This document shows positions 4,694 through 55,608 of a stretch of 64,000 nucleotides of DNA, piece by piece. The stretch lies in the sequence record MW341595, one strand, 5' to 3'. The number at the start of each line of letters is the position of its first letter. The stretch's first letter is position 1. The stretch is from Shigella phage Sfk20. A program made the position numbers and the translations under genes. Under the pieces are notes generated by a model. The model saw nothing but the letters and a program-made list of their open reading frames with translations, made no database searches and was not told where the DNA came from.

Positions 4694-6871
4694 TTAGGCC
4701 GCAAGGGCCTTCATAGTTTTAGCGATTTGGGAAACTTCATCATCACTTAAAGAGTTGCGATAACCGATGAAGTCGGAAACAATACGGAATTTCTTGGTAA
4801 ACTCAGCAACCATTTTATCACTGTTTTTTGAAGCATTATATGATAGTGTTTCAAAAAGATTAGTTACTGTCCAGATGTCATGACCGATGGTACCTTTTCC
4901 ACCGTTGAAATATATACCCTGCAATGAACTAACCATATTACCAAGGCGAGTATATTCTTCGGAAACTTCATCTACACTGAAGTACTTCATCATAAAATCT
5001 AACTCAGGATACTTGATAATTTTATCAATATATCGTTTAGCTGAACTTGAATAACCTACATACTTATCATAATCTACATCATCAAAAGCATCTACATATA
5101 AATCACGTAGAGTTTCAAAAATACATTGGCACTGACCAAGTTCTTTTACCTTTTTCTGCAAAAGTGGACGAATAACATAAAATTCATTAATGCCAATAAG
5201 ATTAGCCATACGAGTCAAAATACTCGTAGACGGATTACAGAGCGATGTAGTACCATCCATAGAGAAAATATCAGAACGATGCATGTATGCTACATAACCA
5301 GTAATTTCATCTGCTTCTGACGTAAGTGTAAACAGTTCCTCTTTTTCCCAGCGCCCGTCTTTAATTTCAAACTTAAACGCAGTAGCAGCTTTAGGACGAG
5401 GAGCTTTACTTTTAACTGCCTTCGGAATATAACTTTTAACTAAAGCTTCAATTTCTGACAAATAATGAATGTTAACTTCATCACTTTCAAACATTGCCAT
5501 AATATCAGGGAGTAAATCAATCTGCGATTCTACTTCCGGATTAATAAACAAAAGACGCTCATTATGATGAATATTCAAAGTGTTATTAAATTCTTTATCA
5601 TCTAACGCATGCGCTAATCCACGGACAATATTAACACGATTTTTAATATTATCAATAACGATATTAATTTTTGTTGTATTAATACCGAACAGACGATAAC
5701 TTGATGCAACGGCTGAAGTTTCATGACTTTGCTTAATGCGTTTCAGTCGAGGGTCAAGATTTACTTCATACACAACTCCTGCATTACATAGTTTACTATC
5801 AGGTTCAAACATGCTTTGCATCTTCTTATATGACAGATTTTTAGTCGTAAATTTGACTGAATTACTAATCATATAATCTCGAGCAGAATATCCCATCTTC
5901 ATCAATTCACGGTATGTATGACGAGGAGATGTAGATTCTTTAAATCGTTTTACATCTTCATTGAATGCTTTCTCACTAAGCTCTTTAACACGCTCAATAA
6001 TATTTTTACGGGTACGATCATCTAGTGAAAGAGCTTCGCGTGATGGAGCAATATCAAGTGAACCCATTGGAAACTTAATGTAATTCACTTCATTGCGGAT
6101 GCTTAACCAGTTACGGTCTCTAATAACACCATCGATAGGATAAACAATACCACCATAGATAGCATACAATCCACCACGATCTGGCCAGTATCTTTCTGGA
6201 TTTACGCCGTAATAGTCATCAAAATCCGGAAAATAATCAATTTCGCGGTCAAGACCATTAATGATAGCTAAATCTTTGAATGGTCGCATGATATAAGAAA
6301 CTTCATAAGCAAAGTTTCTAAAGTCTTTTTCTTCAACTGGAACTACGATTTCAATACCAGTTTTATCATCTGGACCCATTTCTTTTACAAATGTAGGTTT
6401 AATTTGTGGACCATCGCCATCCATGTAAGCTACATAACCACGAATTTCGCCTTTATGATATGAAGTAATACTAAACGTATCAGTATAGCTAAACGGGGAT
6501 TTAGAACCTAAACCAAATCCGCCAATGAAATCATTAGATTCAGCCTTAGATGAACTAAAGTATGAATTATACAACCCAGGAGAATTATCATCACCTTGAA
6601 TATCAAAATCGCTCATACCTGGACCAAAATCTCGACAAACAAATCGCGGATCTAATCGTCCTGGAACTTGAATGATAAATTTTTCAGGATTTCCATTAAG
6701 AGCATGGGCATCAATCATGTTGGTAATCAATTCACGGACAACTGCGCGAATCTTGTTTGTATACAAGTCAGATGACAGAATTTTAAATACTTTAGGAGAT
6801 GCTGTGATGCTAAATGCTTTTGATTTAGAACCATTACCAAGAATTGTTTCTTTTTCAGTGGTGATAATCAT
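4694..6871 (-). CDS. rIIA: rIIA protein
   Basis: 725 aa, same length as T4 rIIA; N-terminus [27 protein letters not shown]... recognised. Confidence 0.95.
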
Positions 6872-6881
6872 AATTTCCTCA

Positions 6882-7085
6882 TTAATTCATATTGCGTTTA
6901 ATAACTTCAGCAACTTCTAGTAGTTCATCTTTAGTTGCGGTGTCGGATTGAATTTTATCTCTAATATCCTTAAAGCGGTTTTTAAACTCTTCAGCTTCTC
7001 CCATATCGAAAAAGCGTTGAATGATTCTATATTCTCGATGAACTGCTTTATCAAAAAGTTCTAAATTTACTTTATATGATTTCAT
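6882..7085 (-). CDS. hypothetical protein (rIIA.1 position), 67 aa
   Basis: ORF track; sits between rIIA and 39 as in T4. Confidence 0.55.
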
Positions 7086-7110
7086 TTCAATATCCTCATT
7101 TGCCCAATTA

Positions 7111-7139
7111 ATTATACCACATCCTTGTGGTAAAGTAAA
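7111..7139 (-). promoter_or_regulatory. early (sigma70-type) promoter upstream of rIIA.1/rIIA
   Basis: Reverse complement TTTACT-17 nt-TATAAT; -35 overlaps gene 39 stop. Confidence 0.6.
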
Positions 7140-8957
7140 CTACTGGCTCATCCATTCTTTACGAAGGTCAGCATTATCCCCCATGAGCATTTCAAAAAGC
7201 TCTTTCCAGTTCTCAGGAAGTTTAACAACATCATATACCGGGTTTTGAATCATCTCACGATATTCAGATTTTTCCAAAGAGCCAAGTCCCTTAATATAAC
7301 GGATGCTATGTTTAGGTAGAGCATCTTTGGAACTCTCATATTCAGCGACTGTATAAAACCATTCTTGTTTTTTACCGACCTGAGCGATGATTACGGGAGT
7401 TTTGACGAAGCGAATTCTTCCTTGTTCAAACAGTTCTGGCCAATTACTAAAAAATCCGAGCAGAGAAGGATAAATGCTTCCTAGACCATCGTGGTCAGCA
7501 TCAGTCATAATAGCAATATTATGATAATTCAAGTTTTCAGCCTTTTCACCAAGAACTAATCCAGTGATTGCGCAAATATCAAACAGTTCTTTGTTTTTAA
7601 GCATATCAGCATATGACATACCCCAACTGTTGAGAACTTTACCACGTAATGGATAACCGCCATGAAGTTCTTTATCACGAACATCAATAAGATATCCGAT
7701 AGCAGAATCACCCTCAGTCAAGAAAAGAGTCGTGTCAGCATCTTTACCACAAAGATTCGCTTTAATATGTTTATGAACCTTAGCTTTAGAGGCCTTTTTA
7801 GCTGCTTTAGTTTCTGCTGCTTTTTCTGCCGCCAATTTACGAGCCAAGGCAGCTTCAATAATTGGCATTAAAATTGCTTCATTATTTAAAATAGCGCGTG
7901 AAATCTTTTTAGCATCAAGCTGAATATGACTACGAATTTCACCAAATGGAGAAGTCAAACGCTCTTTAGTCTGAGAATCAAATCGCATGTTTTTCATATC
8001 ACGAACAAACATAACGATAGTCAAACATTCTTTAACACGTGCTTTAGTTACATCAATTTTGAACTTACGTTTGATTTGTGGAATAAGGTCTTCACAAATA
8101 TCATCCATAACGCAGTCAATATGATGGCCACCATTCTTAGTATGAATGTTATTGACGTATGTTAATTGACGAAAACCATCCGGTGAACGACCAACCGCAA
8201 TAGAACAATTTTCTTGTTCTTGAACAATAGCATGCTCATCATATTGGCGTGCATATTTCTTAAAATTACCCTGAACCTTTTTACCATTAAAGGTAAATTG
8301 AATATCAGGATAAACTACTGCAAGTGTCTGGAGACGATCTAATGTAATGTCAAGATAAACTTGAGATAGCTCATTAGTTTCAAATGACATAAAATCAGGA
8401 ATGAAAGTAACACGAGTTCCTTTCCATTTTCCAGGAATAGTTTCCCATGATTTATTTTCCATGCCATTTGAACAACGAACTACAATATTATTTTGACCGT
8501 CGCCAGTTTCACCGACAAACATCACAGAAAAAATGTTAGTTAAACTAGAACCAACACCGTTCATACCGCCAGTGACACGTTCTTTATCATCACCGAAGTT
8601 ACCACCTGCTTTTGGAATAGTCCAGGCGGCAACAGGACCGGGAATTTCTTCACCAGTAAGTGTTTTAACCATCGCTTGTGGAATACCACGACCGTTATCT
8701 TCAACTGTTACTTGATTGTTTTTGATAGTAACATTAATTTTATTCGCGAATTTAAACTTAGTACGAATACCTTCATCTACTGAGTTATCGATAATTTCAT
8801 CAATAAGCTTAACAAGACCAGGTACATACTGAACACTTTCCCATTTACCAAACAGAAAGCGCTCATGCATTTCATTAGCGGAAGAGCCAATGTACATGCC
8901 GCTACGCTTTTTGATATGTTCAATATCGCTCAGAATTTTAATTTCATTCTTAATCAT
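7140..8957 (-). CDS. 39: DNA topoisomerase II large subunit, unsplit 39 (39+60 equivalent), 605 aa
   Basis: ATG 8955-8957 (ORF track starts 3 nt earlier at GTG); MIKNEIKILSDIEHIKKRSGMYIGS... GyrB-like; continuous ORF covers the region split into 39 and 60 in T4. Confidence 0.95.
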   Translation of the reverse strand: MIKNEIKILSDIEHIKKRSGMYIGSSANEMHERFLFGKWESVQYVPGLVKLIDEIIDNSVDEGIRTKFKFANKINVTIKNNQVTVEDNGRGIPQAMVKTLTGEEIPGPVAAWTIPKAGGNFGDDKERVTGGMNGVGSSLTNIFSVMFVGETGDGQNNIVVRCSNGMENKSWETIPGKWKGTRVTFIPDFMSFETNELSQVYLDITLDRLQTLAVVYPDIQFTFNGKKVQGNFKKYARQYDEHAIVQEQENCSIAVGRSPDGFRQLTYVNNIHTKNGGHHIDCVMDDICEDLIPQIKRKFKIDVTKARVKECLTIVMFVRDMKNMRFDSQTKERLTSPFGEIRSHIQLDAKKISRAILNNEAILMPIIEAALARKLAAEKAAETKAAKKASKAKVHKHIKANLCGKDADTTLFLTEGDSAIGYLIDVRDKELHGGYPLRGKVLNSWGMSYADMLKNKELFDICAITGLVLGEKAENLNYHNIAIMTDADHDGLGSIYPSLLGFFSNWPELFEQGRIRFVKTPVIIAQVGKKQEWFYTVAEYESSKDALPKHSIRYIKGLGSLEKSEYREMIQNPVYDVVKLPENWKELFEMLMGDNADLRKEWMSQ

Positions 8958-9844: not shown

Positions 9845-10264
9845 TTATTCCTTAAAGTGAGCTTTCAACATCTGATACAAGGACCATGCCTGTTCATTAT
9901 TTTCAATAGTAACTTTCATGACAGGAAATTCTGTGAAATCTTCTATTTGTTCTTGCTCTTCCTGCTCTTGCTCTTCAGATGCCTGATATGGATTTTCCAC
10001 TTCATCAAAAAACCCAGCTTCACTTTTTGAAAGCCAAATAAAGTCTTCATCCAAAACATCTTTATCAGGAGATAGTACTAAATTTCCAGTAGATGACAAA
10101 ATTTTAATAGGACGCCCAAGAGAGTCCACATCTAAAATTTTAAAAGGATACATACCTAAACGGCGCGCATAAATTCCGTTATTAATATGGTCTTTAATAA
10201 AATTTTCTTGGGCTTGTTTATTTTTAAATTGATACCATTTATTAATTTCAAATCTAATAGCCAT
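9845..10264 (-). CDS. hypothetical protein (goF position), 139 aa, acidic EQEQEEQEQ tract
   Basis: ORF track; size and position similar to T4 goF, sequence not recognised. Confidence 0.45.
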
Positions 10265-12322: not shown

Positions 12323-13006
12323 TTATCGTTTTGTTGGAAGAGATAGAGGATCGCACTCTTCCTCTGACGGAGCATCTTCAAGACCCATAGCATATCGCAA
12401 AGCATACTTCATCATCAGGATGTCTTTTGCACAGTCATGAATAGAATCATGTGCAACGAATCCGTCTAAAGTTCCCTTTGGAAGAGGACATGTGGTCATA
12501 TCACGAACAAGCAGAAGTGCTTCAATTCTGGTACGAATATCACGTTGATTCCAGAATTTACAAGGTTCTAACTTAAACGTATCAAGCTCATTCTCGGAAA
12601 CGCCGTTAAGACGTTGAATATCACGAATGAGATCAACTAAAATTGGAAAATCAAACGACATTCCACGGCACCAGCCTTGAGATTTCCAAGGATCGATATT
12701 ATGCGCATTGATGTAATCATTAAATTTTGCAATACCATCGATGGTGCTTACATCTTCATCTGATGGTGCAATATTTTTTCGAGCTTCTGGAGATTGGTTT
12801 TTCCACCATTCGATAGTGCTTTTAGTAAAAAGACGATGTCCTTTTTGGCTTTTTAAATCAAATTTGATTTTAATGCCGCGTGAAACTAATTCATCAAATG
12901 TTTCAACTACTTCTGGATTAGGGTCAAAGGCAATAACAGCTAAGTCAATAACAGCTGCCTTTTCACCGCTTCCCATTGTTTCAAAATCTATAATAAAATC
13001 AAACAT
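12323..13006 (-). CDS. dexA: exonuclease A
   Basis: 227 aa, same length and position as T4 DexA; N-terminal DFETMG exonuclease-like motif. Confidence 0.8.
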   Translation of the reverse strand: MFDFIIDFETMGSGEKAAVIDLAVIAFDPNPEVVETFDELVSRGIKIKFDLKSQKGHRLFTKSTIEWWKNQSPEARKNIAPSDEDVSTIDGIAKFNDYINAHNIDPWKSQGWCRGMSFDFPILVDLIRDIQRLNGVSENELDTFKLEPCKFWNQRDIRTRIEALLLVRDMTTCPLPKGTLDGFVAHDSIHDCAKDILMMKYALRYAMGLEDAPSEEECDPLSLPTKR

Positions 13007-13248
13007 TAAATTTTCCTCGCTAAATCGCGAATTTGACCTACAGTATAATCTTGGATATAAACTTTATTAATGGGCTCATCAATAAATTTTGTCATAGATT
13101 CAATATCTTTTTGTATCTCTTCAAGACTGTATACTATCTTTAAAGCTTTTTCGCGAATAGTAACATTATCAGGTCCTGAATTTTCTTGAATGACAGCTTT
13201 AACATTTGCCATAAGAGACTTAAACTGATGCAAACTTAATTCAATCAT
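13006..13248 (-). CDS. small hypothetical protein, 80 aa; member of tandem small-protein set
   Basis: ORF track 13006..13281 trimmed to ATG 13246-13248; shares LEEIQKD and YTVGQI-like blocks with 13241..13501. Confidence 0.45.
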   Translation of the reverse strand: MIELSLHQFKSLMANVKAVIQENSGPDNVTIREKALKIVYSLEEIQKDIESMTKFIDEPINKVYIQDYTVGQIRDLARKI

Positions 13249-47856: not shown

Positions 47857-48145
47857 ATCGGTGTTTGCAATGACGGCATTTATAACGAAGATTACTAGTC
47901 TGCCAATGGACTAATTGAACCTGTTCAGTACCGCATTCAGGACAATTAGGAACGTTTTTAGAAGCCCTTTCGCGACGTTCAACCATAGTCATAATAGCAT
48001 CCCAGGCTGGAGGTTTAAAATCTAAATCATCACAACCATGAATCTTTCCACGCATTTCCAGATCGTCTTCTTCACCATCCATAATAATTTTAATTAGACT
48101 GGAATTACTTGAAGCTGCAATGTCTTCTAATAGACGCTTTTTCAT
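47828..48145 (-). CDS. zinc-ribbon protein, 105 aa (CPECG...CRHC)
   Basis: ORF track; CxxC-x17-CxxC visible. Confidence 0.5.
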
Positions 48146-49071
48146 TTCAATACCTCAATGGCATTACGTAAACCATTTGCTTTTGCATTAAGAGCTTTTA
48201 ACAATTTGGTGTGTTCTGCAATTTGGGCTTCAACTTCAATCAAACGAGCATTGAGATATTCGCGTTCTTCGCTCAGGTTATCAACCTTTTCTACTTTAGG
48301 TTCTTTTACAACTGGCTTATACGTATTAGGGTTCTTCAGTTTAATTAGAATGCGTGAGCTGTATAACATTGAACCATTATCTTCGGTTTCATCATACATT
48401 TCCACTACGTCCATGATTTTTAACATCATGCGGAGTTTATAAGACAACGAACGAATAGTTTTGTTGTGCTTATTAATTTCTCTAGAGTTCATGGTGCCGA
48501 GATTACGTGAGTAATAATAAGGAACCTGGATATTAATTAACACTGATGAACCACCTGACTTGTGTGTTACTTCATCAGCAATAACCCAATCCTTAACATG
48601 AACTGTATTTGTACGGTCATCGCCTGCGGTAAATAGTTTGCGAGCATGCTTAAAAAGCATATTCACTTGGGTATTGAATTGACAAGCAAATTTATCAGCA
48701 AATTTAGTTTCAGGAATGGTAGATAACCAATCAGCTAAATGGGTCTTTTTAACATCGTTAACAATAGTAAATTCAACCAAATCGGTTATAGATGTCGCAG
48801 ATTTAATGAAGCTCGGCTTCATAAAGTTTTTAATGTTATCGCGAGCTACAGTAGAAGATAACATACGAGAACGTTTAAACCATTCAAGCAAATTGCCTAA
48901 CGAATGAGAATAAGCGTTTTGAGTATCTTTACAGATATGATTTTCCTGGCCAACATATTGAAGGAAATCACGAAGAATATTATTGATTACTGCTCTGTGT
49001 CCGATCTGATAATTACGGTGTTTAGTAATAAGACTGTCAAAATAATCAATATAATGTTTACGAGTTTTCAT
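48142..49071 (-). CDS. hypothetical protein with C-terminal coiled coil, 309 aa
   Basis: ORF track; C-terminal heptad-like segment; first of four similar-architecture genes. Confidence 0.55.
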   Translation of the reverse strand: MKTRKHYIDYFDSLITKHRNYQIGHRAVINNILRDFLQYVGQENHICKDTQNAYSHSLGNLLEWFKRSRMLSSTVARDNIKNFMKPSFIKSATSITDLVEFTIVNDVKKTHLADWLSTIPETKFADKFACQFNTQVNMLFKHARKLFTAGDDRTNTVHVKDWVIADEVTHKSGGSSVLINIQVPYYYSRNLGTMNSREINKHNKTIRSLSYKLRMMLKIMDVVEMYDETEDNGSMLYSSRILIKLKNPNTYKPVVKEPKVEKVDNLSEEREYLNARLIEVEAQIAEHTKLLKALNAKANGLRNAIEVLK

Positions 49072-49123
49072 GTTCTTCTCACTTGGTTAATGATTTATAC
49101 TCCGAGCCATCCTTGGCTTTAAA

Positions 49124-50125
49124 TTACTTAATTAATTGTAAAGCTTGTTCAAGACGATCCAGGCGATTAACAGATTCTTCCCAAATCCTTTTAGCCTGCT
49201 CATATTCTTTCTGCGCTTTATTAGAAATTTCTAGAACTTCCTTATAAGCTTTTTCTAATGCAATAACTTCTGGACGAATTTCTACCGGTTCAGGTGAATC
49301 ATCAAGATTATCCATTAGTTCCTCAAGGGTAGTTTCTTCTTTAGGAGTATTCACAATTTCTTCACATTTTTGTTGGTAAATTTCTTTATCAGTCGGTGAG
49401 TACGCACATTTCACTTCACGAAGGCTAATTATAATTTTATATCCTTCCCAACCACACATATTTTTGAAAGGATATGTATGAATACTTTTTACAGTTTCCA
49501 TACAGCCCAAAGCCGCCTCTAATTGATAAGTTATAGTGCTAGCAATTGAGAAAAATTTATTAATATTCTTTTGGTTAGCGTTTGGTGTAAAAAATCCATA
49601 ATTCACAAAAATAGCTACTTTATTTTTATCAAGCTCATTTTCTTTTACGATAATCATATCAGAAGCCAAAGGATGAATTTGACGATAATCGCCATAACAT
49701 AATTTAGAAGCTGATTTTAGAATTTGTCCTTTGAAAAGTCTGAAATTACTAATCCACCGACGAGTAAAAATATTCTCAGGGTCTTCTTTATTATTAAGAT
49801 GATAAGAATTAACATCACCGAACCAATTATATCCTACTACATCTTTAGTTCGTTTAATTTCTTTCCCAAATTTACTAAGAATATCTCTGTTGACTAAGTA
49901 TGAAAGAAGACGAGAACCTTTAAAGGTTTCCTTAATGTCATCTTTATATGTACGACTAGAAATTTCACAAACTTCATAAATAAATTTGTCGGAAGAAACA
50001 ATACTTGCACTAGTATTATTGATCCATTGATTGATAATAGAAATCACACTATTCTGACTAGACATAGGTTTAACTTTATCATCAATAACGCTATTGAACG
50101 ATTTGATATATTCGTTACGAGTCAT
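49124..50125 (-). CDS. hypothetical protein with C-terminal coiled coil, 333 aa
   Basis: ORF track 49124..50176 trimmed to ATG 50123-50125 with GAGGAG SD. Confidence 0.55.
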   Translation of the reverse strand: MTRNEYIKSFNSVIDDKVKPMSSQNSVISIINQWINNTSASIVSSDKFIYEVCEISSRTYKDDIKETFKGSRLLSYLVNRDILSKFGKEIKRTKDVVGYNWFGDVNSYHLNNKEDPENIFTRRWISNFRLFKGQILKSASKLCYGDYRQIHPLASDMIIVKENELDKNKVAIFVNYGFFTPNANQKNINKFFSIASTITYQLEAALGCMETVKSIHTYPFKNMCGWEGYKIIISLREVKCAYSPTDKEIYQQKCEEIVNTPKEETTLEELMDNLDDSPEPVEIRPEVIALEKAYKEVLEISNKAQKEYEQAKRIWEESVNRLDRLEQALQLIK

Positions 50126-50153
50126 ATTAATCTCCTCAGTAGAAAGTAAGAAC

Positions 50154-50182
50154 ATTATACCACATCCTTGTGGCAAAGTAAA
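50154..50182 (-). promoter_or_regulatory. early (sigma70-type) promoter
   Basis: Reverse complement TTTACT-17 nt-TATAAT. Confidence 0.6.
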
Positions 50183-51205
50183 CTAGTTCAGTGCATTTAG
50201 TGCATTGTTCAGTTTAGAACGTTGCTTTGTCAGATTTTGAACCCTTGACTGAGCTTGTTCTAACACCTTTTCAGCTTCTAGCACTTCATTGGTCGCTTTA
50301 ACGAGTTCATCATCTACTGCCTTAAGAGACTTCTCAATCGCGTCAGCGTGCCATTTTTCTACAGGTTTAAAATTTGAATTTTCAGTAGGAAGAAAACTCA
50401 CTTTATTAAGTTTACATGCATCTATATTGCTTGAGCTATACATCCAAAATTTAGGATCGTTTGATGAGTAATTGGATAAATTTAAGTTATCTTGCACTTC
50501 CTGCTTTTTCTCTTGCGGGACTTCGTCCTTTCTCAAAAAATCGTATTTAAATGAAACGATCATATCAAGTTCATATGTTGTTGTGTCTAATTTAAATCGC
50601 TCAAAACGAGGTAAAATCTTAGACTGAACAGCGGCAACAACATTCATATACTTAAATGCTTCTGTCAACTGCGATTTAAGGCATTCGCAAATTGAAAGAG
50701 AATTTTTTGTATTAGGTTTAAAGCTAATTCGCGCAGTTCTGTTATTTTCTTTTAATGGTCTTACTTCCATCTGAAGAGTATAACCATCAAATTTCAGGTT
50801 CTTTAAGTTAATGTCAGAACCTTTTAATCGACTAGCAGTCGACAAAATTTGCTTTAATTGTCTACGGAACAGAGCAATAAATCTCCATTCAATACGATAA
50901 TGATTTGGATTAAAAAATCCAGATGATAAATCGACCTTACTTTGACCAACACCTTGAACAAATAGAGGATTTTTATAATCAATAGTTTTACAGAAATTGG
51001 TGAGTTGCTCACGAGCCGTCATTTGTGTAATATACCCCGCTTTACTAAAATTACTCACCCATTCACTGCTATTTAGATATTTAAAGTGATGAATAGCACG
51101 ATTAACTTTATCAGGGTCTAAATTATTTTCGCACAAAAATGTCATAACATTACGAGTATCGCTGGCAGTACGAACCATATCTTCAATTTGAGAACGAGTT
51201 TTCAT
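50183..51205 (-). CDS. hypothetical protein with C-terminal coiled coil, 340 aa
   Basis: ORF track; C-terminal heptad-like segment. Confidence 0.55.
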   Translation of the reverse strand: MKTRSQIEDMVRTASDTRNVMTFLCENNLDPDKVNRAIHHFKYLNSSEWVSNFSKAGYITQMTAREQLTNFCKTIDYKNPLFVQGVGQSKVDLSSGFFNPNHYRIEWRFIALFRRQLKQILSTASRLKGSDINLKNLKFDGYTLQMEVRPLKENNRTARISFKPNTKNSLSICECLKSQLTEAFKYMNVVAAVQSKILPRFERFKLDTTTYELDMIVSFKYDFLRKDEVPQEKKQEVQDNLNLSNYSSNDPKFWMYSSSNIDACKLNKVSFLPTENSNFKPVEKWHADAIEKSLKAVDDELVKATNEVLEAEKVLEQAQSRVQNLTKQRSKLNNALNALN

Positions 51206-51213
51206 GGTATTCC

Positions 51214-52119
51214 TTAAGATTTAAGTAAATCGACAATTTTAATTAACTTTTCACGCTCAGATTTAGCTTTACTACTCAGTCCAGATAGTCTGAAAATTTC
51301 ATCATCATATTGTTGAATAGAAATATTCAGCTCTTCAATCTGTTTATTAAAATAATCAATTTGTTCAGAATGTTTTTCGTTACTACGAACTGGTACAGGT
51401 GTCGTAGGCAATGTAGTTGAACTGGATTCATCCGGGCGATAAATTAAAATACAACTTGAACCAATAGGGCATTTTGCACCAGATGAATATTCTAATGTTC
51501 CAGCTTCTTTTAAAACTTCAAAAGCTAAACAGAGATGATGACCCATATTGACATAATCTGTAGAGTGAGCTCTGATATAATAATCATCGCCACGAGTAAT
51601 AAATTTAAAGCATTTAAGGTCTTCTGTATTATTAGTCTTAAAAATCATTTGTTTATCTAGACCTTTAGCTAATCGAGCGCCTAATGCTAATAATCGTCTT
51701 TGATTTTCCCACAAATCCACAATCATTTGATCGAATGATAATTTTGGCATTAGTCGACCATAAAGGTCATATCCTTTATTATAATTACGAAGGATTTCAC
51801 TCGCGTTAATACGAGACAATGCTCCAATTTTATTAAGGGCTTTCATAATGCGATTAGATAAACTCATTCCAGACCCATTTGTTCGCTGCAAATGTTTTTC
51901 TAATCCAAATCCAATATCAACTTTAAACTTATCTAAAATTTCTGCATGAACATCTCTGTCAATAACATTCAAATCCAAAGTTGGGTTAAATCTATGAAAA
52001 AATTTATCCGGCTCTCCACGGCGAAATACAGTCCATTCATTCATCATTTTTTTATTAACTAAAGATTTAATTACTACATTGACATTATTAATTACTACTG
52101 ACATATTTTCCTCACTCAA
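51214..52119 (-). CDS. hypothetical protein with C-terminal coiled coil, 301 aa
   Basis: ORF track; C-terminal heptad-like segment. Confidence 0.55.
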   Translation of the reverse strand: MSEENMSVVINNVNVVIKSLVNKKMMNEWTVFRRGEPDKFFHRFNPTLDLNVIDRDVHAEILDKFKVDIGFGLEKHLQRTNGSGMSLSNRIMKALNKIGALSRINASEILRNYNKGYDLYGRLMPKLSFDQMIVDLWENQRRLLALGARLAKGLDKQMIFKTNNTEDLKCFKFITRGDDYYIRAHSTDYVNMGHHLCLAFEVLKEAGTLEYSSGAKCPIGSSCILIYRPDESSSTTLPTTPVPVRSNEKHSEQIDYFNKQIEELNISIQQYDDEIFRLSGLSSKAKSEREKLIKIVDLLKS

Positions 52120-52513
52120 TTTTACTAATTACGCGAAATAAGATTGAACAGACTATATAAGTACCGCATATAGACTGAACTAATGCCATTCCAAAGAACC
52201 AAATAATATTATCAAACCATGTCTGTTTTACGTCGAAAGGACGTAAACTTACAGTAATATTATCACCTTTTTCTATTGAAGAATACATCTCTGGGGAAAT
52301 ATATTCACTAAATCTATAACCGTCTTTGAGTTCATATACGGCAATAAACGATAAACTAGACCCTTTTCCTTGTGTTCCTGTAATGGTATTAACTACAGTA
52401 GCATCATAATCTTTATAATGCATATAATCATTAATTGCGTAATAACCATATGCAATTACTACACATAAACAACATATCAATAAATTCAATCTTTTAATTA
52501 TCAACTGTTTCAT
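52112..52513 (-). CDS. membrane protein, 133 aa
   Basis: ORF track; N- and C-terminal hydrophobic segments. Confidence 0.5.
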   Translation of the reverse strand: MKQLIIKRLNLLICCLCVVIAYGYYAINDYMHYKDYDATVVNTITGTQGKGSSLSFIAVYELKDGYRFSEYISPEMYSSIEKGDNITVSLRPFDVKQTWFDNIIWFFGMALVQSICGTYIVCSILFRVISKIE

Positions 52514-52568: not shown

Positions 52569-53096
52569 TTATGCGAGTACCGTCTTTAACCGTTCTTCAA
52601 ACTTCCGAAGAGTATTTTGGCGTTCAGCTCTTTGCTTTTTGTAAGTTTCAATACGCTCTGAAATGAGAGTGTATCGTTCATTTACCGATTCTTTCATAAA
52701 ATCAGGAATTTCACGAGAAGCTTTAATCTCGTCAAATTTATCAATAACAGCTTGCTCTTCAGCAATTAAGTTATCATACATCAAAATATCTTTCTTGATG
52801 AACTCAATATCTTCTTGAGTTACACGAGATAATTTAGATGCTTTATCCTTTTTGTACTGTTCATTAGTATCACGAGACCAGTGTAATGTACGATTTTTAT
52901 TCGTATTCTTGTAAATTTCTACAATACCGATCTCATCGATAATAACGATCCAATTCCAACGGGATTTGTAAATTTGTCCTCCATCAACAGTGATTTCACC
53001 TCCGATTGAGATGTCATTAAAGAACTTGCTTTGTGCCTCAGATTTAAATTTACCATCGTTGTAATTTACCAAGTTGAAAATATCTTTAGCGTTCAT
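52569..53096 (-). CDS. hypothetical protein, 175 aa, C-terminal coiled coil
   Basis: ORF track; ATG 53094-53096 with GGAGG SD. Confidence 0.5.
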   Translation of the reverse strand: MNAKDIFNLVNYNDGKFKSEAQSKFFNDISIGGEITVDGGQIYKSRWNWIVIIDEIGIVEIYKNTNKNRTLHWSRDTNEQYKKDKASKLSRVTQEDIEFIKKDILMYDNLIAEEQAVIDKFDEIKASREIPDFMKESVNERYTLISERIETYKKQRAERQNTLRKFEERLKTVLA

Positions 53097-53560: not shown

Positions 53561-54529
53561 TTATTTCAGAAGAGTAACCTCAGCGATTTCTTCCCAACCA
53601 TTTTTGTCGGTCATAATAAAGTCAGCAAGATAAAGAGCAGTACGCAGTGAAACATTGCGTAAACGATTAACATTAACTTTCATCCATGATAATGCTTTAT
53701 AAGTTTCTTCATCAGAAAGACCACGCTTTTGCATCATGTCAGTTGAAAGAATAACATCTTCAACCCTGACCATAATTTCTTCATTAGTGTGAACACCCAA
53801 ATCTAAATAAACTGAGCGGGACACTAATGCTTGTAAATGTGGAGCAAGTTTAGTACCACGGTCTAATTCGCGGTCAATGTCAACGTTTGTGATAAAAACA
53901 ATCGTTCCTTTAAATTCAAACTCACGCTCAATGCCTTTTTCTTCTAAGTAAGAAGATGCAGTGCTCCAGCAGACTTTACGGGTCTCTCCAGTGTCCAGAG
54001 CGGCTTTTAGAAGATTAAGAATGTCCATATCAGAGAAAACATCCACATCATCAATCAAAAGGACAGAATTCTCTTCACGATTATTCCAAAGCTGCTCATA
54101 AAGACCAATACCAGAGATTTTACCATTAATGCTTTTATATTCAATGTATCCAATATCATTTGCTTTATTTAAAGCTTTATCTAAAGAATACGTTTTACCA
54201 ATACCTGCTGCGCCAGAGATAATTAATGAACGAATATTTCCGTTAATAATACCATTCGTCATCATTCCCATAACATTAAATCTTTTATTAATGCGGGTTT
54301 TCATATCTTCATATGATTCTTTAACTTCTTCAACTTTTACACCATCATATGAAATATCTGATTTGTAAACCCAAACACCGCGACGTTTACCGTCAATTTC
54401 AACAAAAACTTTACCATCTCCTTGCGCATCTACTGGAGCATTATCTGGGAACCATTCGCCTAAGAGCTCAAAAGTTCCAGAGATTTCTTTACCGAAGTAG
54501 ATACCCTTATTGATAGTTACAGTTTTCAT
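53561..54529 (-). CDS. P-loop NTPase, 322 aa
   Basis: ORF track 53561..54598 trimmed to ATG 54527-54529 (GGAGaataaa leader); Walker A GAAGIGKT, Walker B LLIDDVD. Confidence 0.6.
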   Translation of the reverse strand: MKTVTINKGIYFGKEISGTFELLGEWFPDNAPVDAQGDGKVFVEIDGKRRGVWVYKSDISYDGVKVEEVKESYEDMKTRINKRFNVMGMMTNGIINGNIRSLIISGAAGIGKTYSLDKALNKANDIGYIEYKSINGKISGIGLYEQLWNNREENSVLLIDDVDVFSDMDILNLLKAALDTGETRKVCWSTASSYLEEKGIEREFEFKGTIVFITNVDIDRELDRGTKLAPHLQALVSRSVYLDLGVHTNEEIMVRVEDVILSTDMMQKRGLSDEETYKALSWMKVNVNRLRNVSLRTALYLADFIMTDKNGWEEIAEVTLLK

Positions 54530-54574
54530 TTTATTCTCCAAATCCGTATCAGTTGATAGTTGTATAGTACCATA

Positions 54575-54592
54575 GGGAGCCCGAAGGCTCCC
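54575..54592 (-). terminator. GC stem-loop gggagcc-cgaa-ggctccc
   Basis: Palindrome just downstream of the NTase stop, directly abutting a -10 element and conserved leader. Confidence 0.45.
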
Positions 54593-54594
54593 TA

Positions 54595-55608
54595 TCATTT
54601 ATAATAACTTCGGTGGTTTTCAAGATAAACCCTCTCAAGGAAGTCATCCCAGAAACCCATGTCTACTTTTTGCTGCATACCGTTCTTAGAAGCTTCAATG
54701 GATGCTGCTTCTACTTGATCGACCACATCTTCCAAAAACTCTTGAACAGTTTTAAATGGATGTTTACCCAACTTCACGTCGAGAATAAATGGAGCGTCTT
54801 GAAGTGGATAGACTAAGTCACCAGTTTTGTAAATTTCCAATAGTTGGAGCCCACCACGACAAGCATGACTCAGAGCTTTCCAGTCAATGCCCTCATTCGC
54901 TTCAGCCTTACGAGCACGTTCGCCGTATTCAGCATCAAGTTTATTCAAAGATTGCTTAAGCTCGATAAGAGAAAGTGTTGTTTGATATTTACGACCCAAC
55001 ACAGTGTAGAACGTTTGTGGACCTGTTTTCTCATGATTATGGAATACCCATTCACAGAATTCGTTCTCTGGAAGACGATGCTTAATATCTTCAACTTTAG
55101 TTCGACGCTGCTTAATGGAACCGTCTTCTTGGTAATCAACCCATTGCTCAGGGATTTGATTAACTACTTTCAATACATCACGTAATGCGGCCAAACGAGA
55201 ACCCTTAACACCGTATTTAGAAGCTTGCTTGCGAACATATCCTAAGTAGGATTTCATGTTAGTCGTATAAAAACGAGAACGATTGTCTTGAATAAACTTC
55301 CATACATCAGGCAAATCAGATTTAATTACTAGTTCCGGTGGAGTGTGGAGCATATCCAATGCTACAGTTTCACCATCTGCTGCTAATTTAAAGAAATACT
55401 TAAGACTGTATAGTTCATGGTCAATATCATCTTTAGTGTTTTTAGATGATGTGTTGTTAGTGTTTTTACTCATATGCTCTTTAACATTTCCGATAAGAAT
55501 ATCACGAGCAGGAGGAACAAAGATTTCTTTAAAATCTACATCAGATTCTGGAGTAGAAGTTCCATAAAGATGACTACCAAAATAGCTTTTCATTACTGTT
55601 TTCATCAT
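54595..55608 (-). CDS. putative nucleotidyltransferase (Pol-beta superfamily fold), 337 aa
   Basis: N-terminal GS-x9-DxD signature (GSHLYGTSTPESDVDF) in ORF-track translation. Confidence 0.55.
   Translation of the reverse strand: MMKTVMKSYFGSHLYGTSTPESDVDFKEIFVPPARDILIGNVKEHMSKNTNNTSSKNTKDDIDHELYSLKYFFKLAADGETVALDMLHTPPELVIKSDLPDVWKFIQDNRSRFYTTNMKSYLGYVRKQASKYGVKGSRLAALRDVLKVVNQIPEQWVDYQEDGSIKQRRTKVEDIKHRLPENEFCEWVFHNHEKTGPQTFYTVLGRKYQTTLSLIELKQSLNKLDAEYGERARKAEANEGIDWKALSHACRGGLQLLEIYKTGDLVYPLQDAPFILDVKLGKHPFKTVQEFLEDVVDQVEAASIEASKNGMQQKVDMGFWDDFLERVYLENHRSYYK

Follow-up and report, generated by a model that had tools for sequence, protein, structure and literature searches.

A tandem array of diverged paralogues with predicted coiled-coil tails, including the orthologue of the anti-Dsr1 gene nrdC.5, in the T4-like Shigella phage Sfk20

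Four consecutive open reading frames (ORFs) of Shigella phage Sfk20 (sequence record MW341595), all on the minus strand, encode proteins of 296 to 340 residues that each end in a predicted coiled coil. The locus, which lies in the 64,000-nucleotide stretch of this genome that we analysed (hereafter, the window), raises the question of how such a set of genes came to be: do variable N-terminal domains share one C-terminal module that docks them to a common partner, as an initial annotation of the sequence had proposed, or are the proteins related along their entire length, and what might they then be doing for the phage? We found that the four genes are a tandem array of whole-length, strongly diverged paralogues, and not one module moved onto unrelated domains. 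One of them is the orthologue of a T4 gene with a published role against a bacterial defence protein, which opens the way to a reading of the whole array.

The window is part of a Tequatrovirus (T4-like) genome and, judging from sequence comparison, the four ORFs are the orthologues of T4 nrdC.3, nrdC.4, nrdC.5 and nrdC.6. The 3,978-base-pair stretch that holds them is 98.7% identical to Shigella phage KNP5, has matches in 656 T4-like phage records, and carries all of its genes on the minus strand. Gene names were taken by comparison with the annotated T4 reference and phage KMB40, and the order nrdC.2-3-4-5-6-7-8 in the window is that of T4 and KMB40. All four ORFs were confirmed, three of them with the coordinates initially given; the start of nrdC.6 was moved from the TTG at 52119 to the ATG at 52104 (MSVVINN...), because T4 and about 100 homologues begin there, which makes the TTG the less likely start as far as comparison of homologues can tell. 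The four genes, with identities to T4 at the amino acid level, are as follows.

48142..49071, minus strand: nrdC.3 orthologue, 309 residues; 61% identical to T4 NrdC.3 (blastp), a hypervariable allele
49124..50125, minus strand: nrdC.4 orthologue, 333 residues; 88% identical to T4 (blastp)
50183..51205, minus strand: nrdC.5 orthologue, 340 residues; 93% identical to T4 NrdC.5 over the full length (blastp)
51214..52104, minus strand: nrdC.6 orthologue, 296 residues; 96.5% identical to T4 NrdC.6 over the first 259 residues (blastp), ATG at 52104

Matches to families of phage proteins were strong: nrdC.3 and nrdC.4 both hit phrog_1435 (E values of 1.6e-116 and 3.5e-163), nrdC.6 hit phrog_2257 (E 1.9e-150), and nrdC.5 matched Pfam DUF7235/PF23882 over the whole model length with 396 bits (E 1.5e-118; gathering threshold 30 bits). 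Among precomputed assignments, PF26897 ('Phage_T4_Y04OP') is found on nrdC.3/nrdC.4 homologues that are 40-95% identical, and PF26899 on all 105 nrdC.6 homologues. In searches of the protein family libraries with the four proteins, Pfam gave DUF7235 alone, NCBIfam and PADLOC gave no family assignment, and the PADLOC defence-system models yielded no match except a 13-bit coiled-coil match to BrxC.

The view of the locus as a tandem array follows from three links, namely the homology of nrdC.3 and nrdC.4, the match between the nrdC.3/4 and nrdC.5 profiles, and the match between the nrdC.4 and nrdC.6 folds. The first of these can be seen by direct comparison: blastp aligned about 280 residues of nrdC.3 and nrdC.4 at 24% identity (E 9e-9), and hhalign, with the helices removed, gave E 2e-13 and a probability of 98%. 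The homology of these two members of phrog_1435 covers about 230-270 N-terminal residues; among the four proteins, no other pairwise blastp comparison was significant. First-pass profiles of nrdC.4 and nrdC.5 matched weakly, through two distinct stretches in colinear order (E 1e-3 and 7e-4), and the link to nrdC.5 reached significance only once bridging sequences had been added. One such bridge is a metagenomic protein (P0232, PF26897) with a body like that of nrdC.4 and a tail, ...TQRGKLLRAIQALK, much like that of nrdC.5; it aligned with the nrdC.5 family over 251 columns (E 2e-5). When nrdC.3/4 were merged with this protein and with a further one (P0226), and nrdC.5 with its distant Mosigvirus and Gaprivervirus relatives, the two profiles matched at E 7.7e-8 and then at 1.4e-10 (probability 96.9%), colinear over 240 columns.

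Run over the window ORFs, the hidden Markov model (HMM) of nrdC.3/4 returned nrdC.5 as its top non-self match (E 0.0027), and the family HMMs found no further paralogues among these ORFs. The N-terminal start M(K)TR is common to nrdC.3, nrdC.4 and nrdC.5, but not to nrdC.6. On the strength of these sequence comparisons, nrdC.3, nrdC.4 and nrdC.5 can securely be placed in one family. An exhaustive search of 1.84 billion representatives with the nrdC.3/4 HMM retrieved just 10 proteins, with no bacterial relative and no relative of known function among them. An apparent hybrid of nrdC.5 and PF26897 (P0056) was considered as a case of module exchange and rejected: it is an in-frame fusion of nrdC.5 to nrdC.3, a natural deletion within the array, and as such mute on homology.

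The nrdC.6 protein probably belongs to the same family, mainly by its predicted fold. In a Foldseek search of BFVD with the nrdC.4 model, the nrdC.6 model of phage JS10 was matched over its full length, with 339 aligned columns (E 1.7e-5, probability 1.0, TM-scores 0.41/0.48), and sequence profiles connect nrdC.6 to the other three proteins weakly (E 2e-3 to 2e-2) and always in colinear fashion. Pfam already unites nrdC.3 and nrdC.4 in PF26897, whereas nrdC.5 (PF23882) and nrdC.6 (PF26899) stand in separate entries; the evidence presented here joins the members of PF26897, PF23882 and PF26899 into one superfamily, in which nrdC.6 is a probable member.

In the T4 reference (NC_000866, about 10000-10120), nrdC.6 encodes 275 residues and has, relative to window positions 51214-51330, a 1-nucleotide deletion (GCTGAATATT to GCTGATATT). 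Owing to this frameshift, the annotated reference NrdC.6 has no coiled coil. In the other frame the DNA continues to encode the complete helix, ISIQQYDDEIFRLSGLSSKAKSEREKLIKIVDLLKS, and nrdC.6 of the re-sequenced T4 (MT984581) matches in a single piece; the frameshift of the reference reflects either an error in sequencing or a polymorphism of the laboratory strain. As a separate observation on this gene, nrdC.6 of Shigella phage Sf25 (P0120, 378 residues) contains an internal tandem duplication of ~82 residues (IRAHSTDY...QIEEL) just before its coiled coil.

The AlphaFold2 model of nrdC.4 comprises a helical N-domain (residues 1-84), an alpha/beta core (about 88-235), two short helices, a linker (266-284) and a long helix, and the secondary-structure elements of the nrdC.5 model come in the same order. 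We take this layout, with its small alpha/beta core, as the architecture common to the four proteins. Foldseek searches with the nrdC.4 model matched nrdC.3 (E 3.9e-8) and, over the full length with E values of 1e-7 to 1e-3, uncharacterised proteins of 280-375 residues from T4-like phages that infect Acinetobacter (Acj61), Pectobacterium, Klebsiella, Enterobacter, Erwinia, Yersinia and Serratia. Two targets, from Serratia CBH8 and Erwinia Cronus, were also found with the low-confidence nrdC.5 model. Profile searches of the PDB with nrdC.4, nrdC.5 and nrdC.6 identified no solved structure related by sequence. For residues 30-86 of nrdC.3 we recorded sub-threshold matches to the N-terminal SAM-like (core-binding) domain of tyrosine recombinases (Pfam PF02899, E 0.072; NCBIfam NF001399, E 0.00098).

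Among the Foldseek matches of both the nrdC.4 and the nrdC.5 model were weak ones to proteins named 'tail completion' and 'neck terminator'. The scores of nitroreductases and of RNA polymerase subunit L come close to these, and the resemblance to tail proteins is therefore a fold-level lead and not a family assignment; read in this way, the modelled alpha/beta core of nrdC.4 may resemble tail-terminator/tail-completion proteins. Compared with such proteins (lambda gpU, 3fz2; SPP1 gp17-like; DUF3168), identity is 3-11% with no sequence similarity, and the nrdC proteins differ from tail terminators in having an extra helical N-domain and a coiled-coil tail.

The C-terminal coiled coils that had been predicted from the sequence were borne out by each of our measures. 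We ranked 28-residue windows with a home-made heptad score (not COILS or Marcoil) and found the C-termini of the four ORFs, together with that of the neighbouring nrdC.8, within the top 8 of 108 minus-strand ORFs and above the 99th percentile of 15,974 such windows; in all five, the best-scoring window is no more than about 25 residues away from the C-terminus. We then fixed a single register across the 42 C-terminal residues and tested it against 5000 shuffled versions of that segment. The resulting p-values (given below for the four proteins; 0.0022 for nrdC.8) indicate that the periodicity exceeds what composition alone would produce. For nrdC.4, AlphaFold2 (model predicted local distance difference test score, pLDDT, 82.8) predicted one unbroken C-terminal helix of 48 residues after the linker, which is disordered, and for nrdC.5, likewise unbroken and preceded by a disordered linker, a C-terminal helix of 59 residues with a helix pLDDT of 76-92, the rest of that model being poor (mean 51). 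The predicted helices map to the window as follows.

48145..48276, minus strand: nrdC.3 coiled-coil helix, about residues 266-309; shuffle p = 0.0002, register, motif
49127..49273, minus strand: nrdC.4 coiled-coil helix, residues 285-333; AlphaFold2 helix 285-332, shuffle p = 0.011, most conserved segment of the nrdC.4 alignment
50186..50365, minus strand: nrdC.5 coiled-coil helix, residues 281-340; AlphaFold2 helix 281-339, shuffle p < 0.0002
51217..51384, minus strand: nrdC.6 conserved PVPVRSNEKH linker motif and coiled-coil helix, about residues 241-296; shuffle p = 0.0012, boundaries from alignment

When the tails are aligned from the C-terminus, one heptad register is common to all four. 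Each is a heptad-periodic helix of 45-60 residues with the consensus terminal motif KLxx[A/I][I/L/V/M]xx[L/I][K/N], as in the ends RLEQALQLIK (nrdC.4), KLNNALNALN (nrdC.5) and KLIKIVDLLKS (nrdC.6). The pattern L..[AI][ILMV]..L[KN] stands at the extreme C-terminus of three of the four ORFs, with the variant L..AL..IK in nrdC.4, and it appears nowhere else in the 186 ORFs of the window (19,647 residues). Beyond the last ~10 residues the helices are unlike one another between paralogues, and it is the C-terminal helix that, of all segments, varies least within each orthologue group. The idea of a shared C-terminal module on dissimilar N-termini thus holds for the module, which can be aligned by its single register and terminal motif; it fails for the N-terminal parts, which are homologous.

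The ORF at 52569-53096, nrdC.8, had been said to end similarly. It does end in a heptad-periodic helix (rank 4 of 108), but it has no detectable homology to the four proteins, and with no profile similarity to any of the four families (hhalign E > 0.03) it was rejected as a fifth member. Elsewhere in the window, an ORF of 80 residues at 13006-13248 (minus strand) has the third-highest heptad score and was the best non-self match of the nrdC.6 HMM, at an insignificant E of 0.013.

Orthologues of the four genes are widespread, with tblastn matches in 653 (nrdC.3), 553 (nrdC.4), 535 (nrdC.5) and 741 (nrdC.6) phage records. A presence/absence comparison across related phages, the check proposed with the initial annotation, revealed 1 to 4 members within Tequatrovirus and 2-3 in other genera, with the array syntenic, in the same nrdC-to-nrdC.10 interval, in Mosigvirus, Gaprivervirus and Acj61. 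Mosigvirus KMB38 carries nrdC.6-like, nrdC.5-like and nrdC.3-like genes in that order. In the Gaprivervirus SP18, a Shigella phage, nrdC.6 and nrdC.4 flank a split nrdC.5-like gene (7970-8874), which consists of two ORFs, gp093 for the N-terminal part and gp092 for the C-terminal part with the coiled coil, both matching the nrdC.5 profile at E about 3e-9. Acj61 p120 and p121 are neighbours in the interval from nrdC to nrdC.10, where the T4 array also lies, and both finish in a heptad helix with an L..AL motif; their sequences showed no detectable similarity to those of the T4 proteins.

Members have also been lost in nature. Yersinia phage fPS-2 (4001-5826) has neither nrdC.4 nor nrdC.5, and its nrdC.6 is joined directly to nrdC.3 across the same 8-nucleotide spacer, at the MKTR start common to nrdC.5 and nrdC.3. 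In phage ACG-C40 only nrdC.6 is intact, and the remnants at 5805-6216 consist of a 71-residue piece of nrdC.5 and the last 72 codons of nrdC.3. The nrdC.3 alleles in phage records fall into three classes, roughly 90-99%, 75-78% and about 60% identical. Between the window and T4, residues 91-270 of nrdC.3, which make up the alpha/beta core, are 40-56% identical, as against 76-100% for the N-terminus and the helix. This hypervariable core between a conserved N-terminus and a conserved helix is the likely target-binding surface.

What, then, might such proteins do? That the genes are T4 ORFs is already known, and of the known functions that clear single-copy orthologues might have supplied, one exists, that of nrdC.5. 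A T4 clone with a multi-gene deletion fails to plate on ECOR17 or on MG1655 carrying dsr1, and plasmid-expressed T4 nrdC.5 alone restores plating of that clone on Dsr1 cells (Srikant et al. 2022, eLife, PMC9391042). The window ORF at 50183-51205 is the orthologue of this anti-Dsr1 protein, and the other three ORFs are its paralogues. The same study treats nrdC.5 as a single uncharacterised early gene, and the paralogy, the coiled-coil tail and the fold are absent from it; our literature search turned up no account of what nrdC.3, nrdC.4 or nrdC.6 do, nor of the paralogy or the coiled-coil tails. The grouping of the four genes into one family and the common architecture across Straboviridae appear to be new. 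Further, the T4 nrdC.1-6 block is deletable (PMC9825161). A 2026 preprint (PMC12803255) reports that the phage major capsid protein triggers the tetratricopeptide repeat (TPR) sensor of Dsr1, and that tail terminators are among the structural folds to which other Avs sensors respond. A functional analogue may be found in DSAD1 of Bacillus phage SPbeta, which inhibits DSR2, a SIR2-domain NADase defence protein, by binding (PMC10981675, PMC11087589). The likeness is one of working model ('works like') and not of family membership, and the targets differ: DSR2 for DSAD1, and for NrdC.5 Dsr1 with its capsid-triggered TPR sensor.

Taken together, we consider it probable, at roughly 0.6, that the locus is an accessory array of counter-defence paralogues with an oligomerising coiled-coil tail. 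Such an array would be a diversifying set of counter-defence proteins, in which the variable globular core would bind and neutralise a host immune protein. By analogy with DSAD1 acting on DSR2, the target of NrdC.5 would be Dsr1, most likely bound directly. The conserved C-terminal helix would form a homo-oligomer, and thereby raise avidity or match an oligomeric target. Several points weigh against this interpretation. Counter-defence has been published for nrdC.5 only, and only as plasmid complementation; for nrdC.3, nrdC.4 and nrdC.6 the role is a putative one. Direct binding between NrdC.5 and Dsr1 is proposed by analogy. The coiled coils were called from a home-made heptad score and monomer models. 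The link to nrdC.6 consists of one Foldseek match and of colinear profile matches that are weak (E 2e-3 to 2e-2), and the nrdC.5 model is poor (pLDDT 51), since the nrdC.5 family is >76% identical throughout, so that its fold matches are only supportive. Finally, as the T4 reference NrdC.6 lacks the helix, the latter may be dispensable for NrdC.6 in the laboratory.

How do other explanations fare on the same evidence? The common-partner idea, with variable or unrelated N-terminal domains tethered through a shared coiled-coil module to one host protein or phage hub, can draw on the extreme C-terminal motif and heptad register common to all four proteins, and on the conservation of the helix within each orthologue group, which exceeds what a generic oligomerisation helix would need. 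We nevertheless regard it as unlikely, because only the last ~10 residues of the helices are alike between paralogues, plasmid-borne nrdC.5 is sufficient by itself against Dsr1, and natural phages lose members singly or in blocks; moreover, the N-terminal parts are homologous rather than unrelated, and our analysis yielded no candidate partner. Considering the sufficiency of nrdC.5, the dissimilar helices and the 1-4 members per phage, self-association fits better than obligatory docking to a shared partner. That the paralogues might instead join through their helices into one hetero-oligomeric complex with a single function is suggested by neighbouring genes that share a strand and are probably transcribed together, by the common register, length and terminal motif of the helices, and by the coiled-coil end of the neighbouring nrdC.8. 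Copy number, from 1 to 4 within one genus and 2-3 in others, speaks against a complex of this kind, as do the activity of plasmid nrdC.5 alone in a phage clone with a multi-gene deletion and the T4 reference NrdC.6 without a helix, all of which makes it improbable.

The fold-level lead could be taken to mean that the proteins are diverged structural or assembly proteins, relatives of tail terminators or tail-completion proteins, with a role in virion morphogenesis and not in counter-defence. This we hold to be very unlikely. Tail terminators belong to the late structural module and are essential, whereas nrdC.3-6 are early-region genes, situated between nrdC and nrdC.10 behind an early-type promoter, and are dispensable; neither a late-module location nor an essential virion role applies to them, given that the block is deletable and that members are missing in natural phages. 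The trivial explanation, in which charged, helix-rich C-termini are usual in AT-rich phage genomes and the four ORFs are otherwise unrelated, would account for the several other small window ORFs that also stand high on the heptad measure. It is scarcely credible in view of the shuffle tests, which show periodicity beyond composition, the terminal motif found at no other C-terminus among the 186 ORFs, the profile and fold evidence for homology, and the synteny of the architecture in distant phages.

The counter-defence reading can be carried one step further, to a scenario that we consider doubtful but worth stating. The family would derive from a phage structural protein with the tail-terminator/tail-completion fold that was recruited to early expression, and its members would act as oligomeric decoys or plugs for bacterial pattern-recognition sensors that respond to the folds of phage structural proteins, the Dsr1/Avs7-type and other Avs TPR sensors among them. 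Each paralogue and each allele class would then suit a sensor of its own, and nrdC.3, nrdC.4 and nrdC.6 would be three as yet undescribed anti-sensor proteins.

Other features of the locus concern its expression and its neighbours.

50154..50182, minus strand: sigma-70 / T4-early-type promoter-like site upstream of nrdC.4, from a consensus scan and the sequence
52112-52513, minus strand: nrdC.7, predicted membrane protein, by comparison with T4 and KMB40
52569..53096, minus strand: nrdC.8, 175 residues, phrog_2274 match

The promoter that had been placed before the second gene is indeed a good consensus match (50182-50154): GTTTACT, 17 nucleotides, TG-TATAAT, followed by a GAGGAG ribosome-binding site and ATG. 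Promoter-like matches in the region are not enriched over shuffles (40 found and 38 expected), and the site is for this reason best described as a consensus match only. Beyond nrdC.8 come nrdC.9, nrdC.10 (AAA-type ATPase) and nrdC.11 (RlaP-like nucleotidyltransferase). At 53561-55608 of the window, nrdC.10 (345 residues) encodes a P-loop ATPase, for which the Pfam matches to AAA and 'novel STAND NTPase' were weak, and nrdC.11 (337 residues) overlaps it; the pair is also conserved in Acj61. In ACG-C40 (1388-2407), genes for a ModB-like ADP-ribosyltransferase and a DUF4031 protein lie between nrdC.11 and nrdC.10, and since both are absent from this place in the window and in the T4 reference annotation, the nrdC.11-nrdC.10 interval can be viewed as a variable accessory-gene hotspot. 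Acj61 encodes, at 6229-8938 and about 30 kilobases from its nrdC-family genes, a nicotinamide phosphoribosyltransferase beside a ribose-phosphate pyrophosphokinase, a nicotinamide adenine dinucleotide (NAD) salvage pair; pairs of this type have been described as counteracting defences that deplete NAD. As to names, many T4-like genomes in GenBank call nrdC.1-nrdC.11 'thioredoxin', apparently spread from the gene-name prefix, and a 2026 paper, for the same reason, took nrdC.8 for a nucleotide reductase. No resemblance to thioredoxin or to a reductase is seen in any of the nrdC.1-nrdC.11 proteins.

T4 is the reference phage for work on counter-defence, and most of its early accessory genes are without known function. 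If our reading is correct, nrdC.3, nrdC.4 and nrdC.6, being paralogues of the anti-Dsr1 gene nrdC.5, would become three named, testable candidate inhibitors of other immune sensors. The array would then represent an accessory early-gene family of Straboviridae that is recognisable by structure yet invisible to sequence comparison, and the family could be used for mining anti-defence genes in phages of Acinetobacter, Klebsiella, Serratia and Erwinia.

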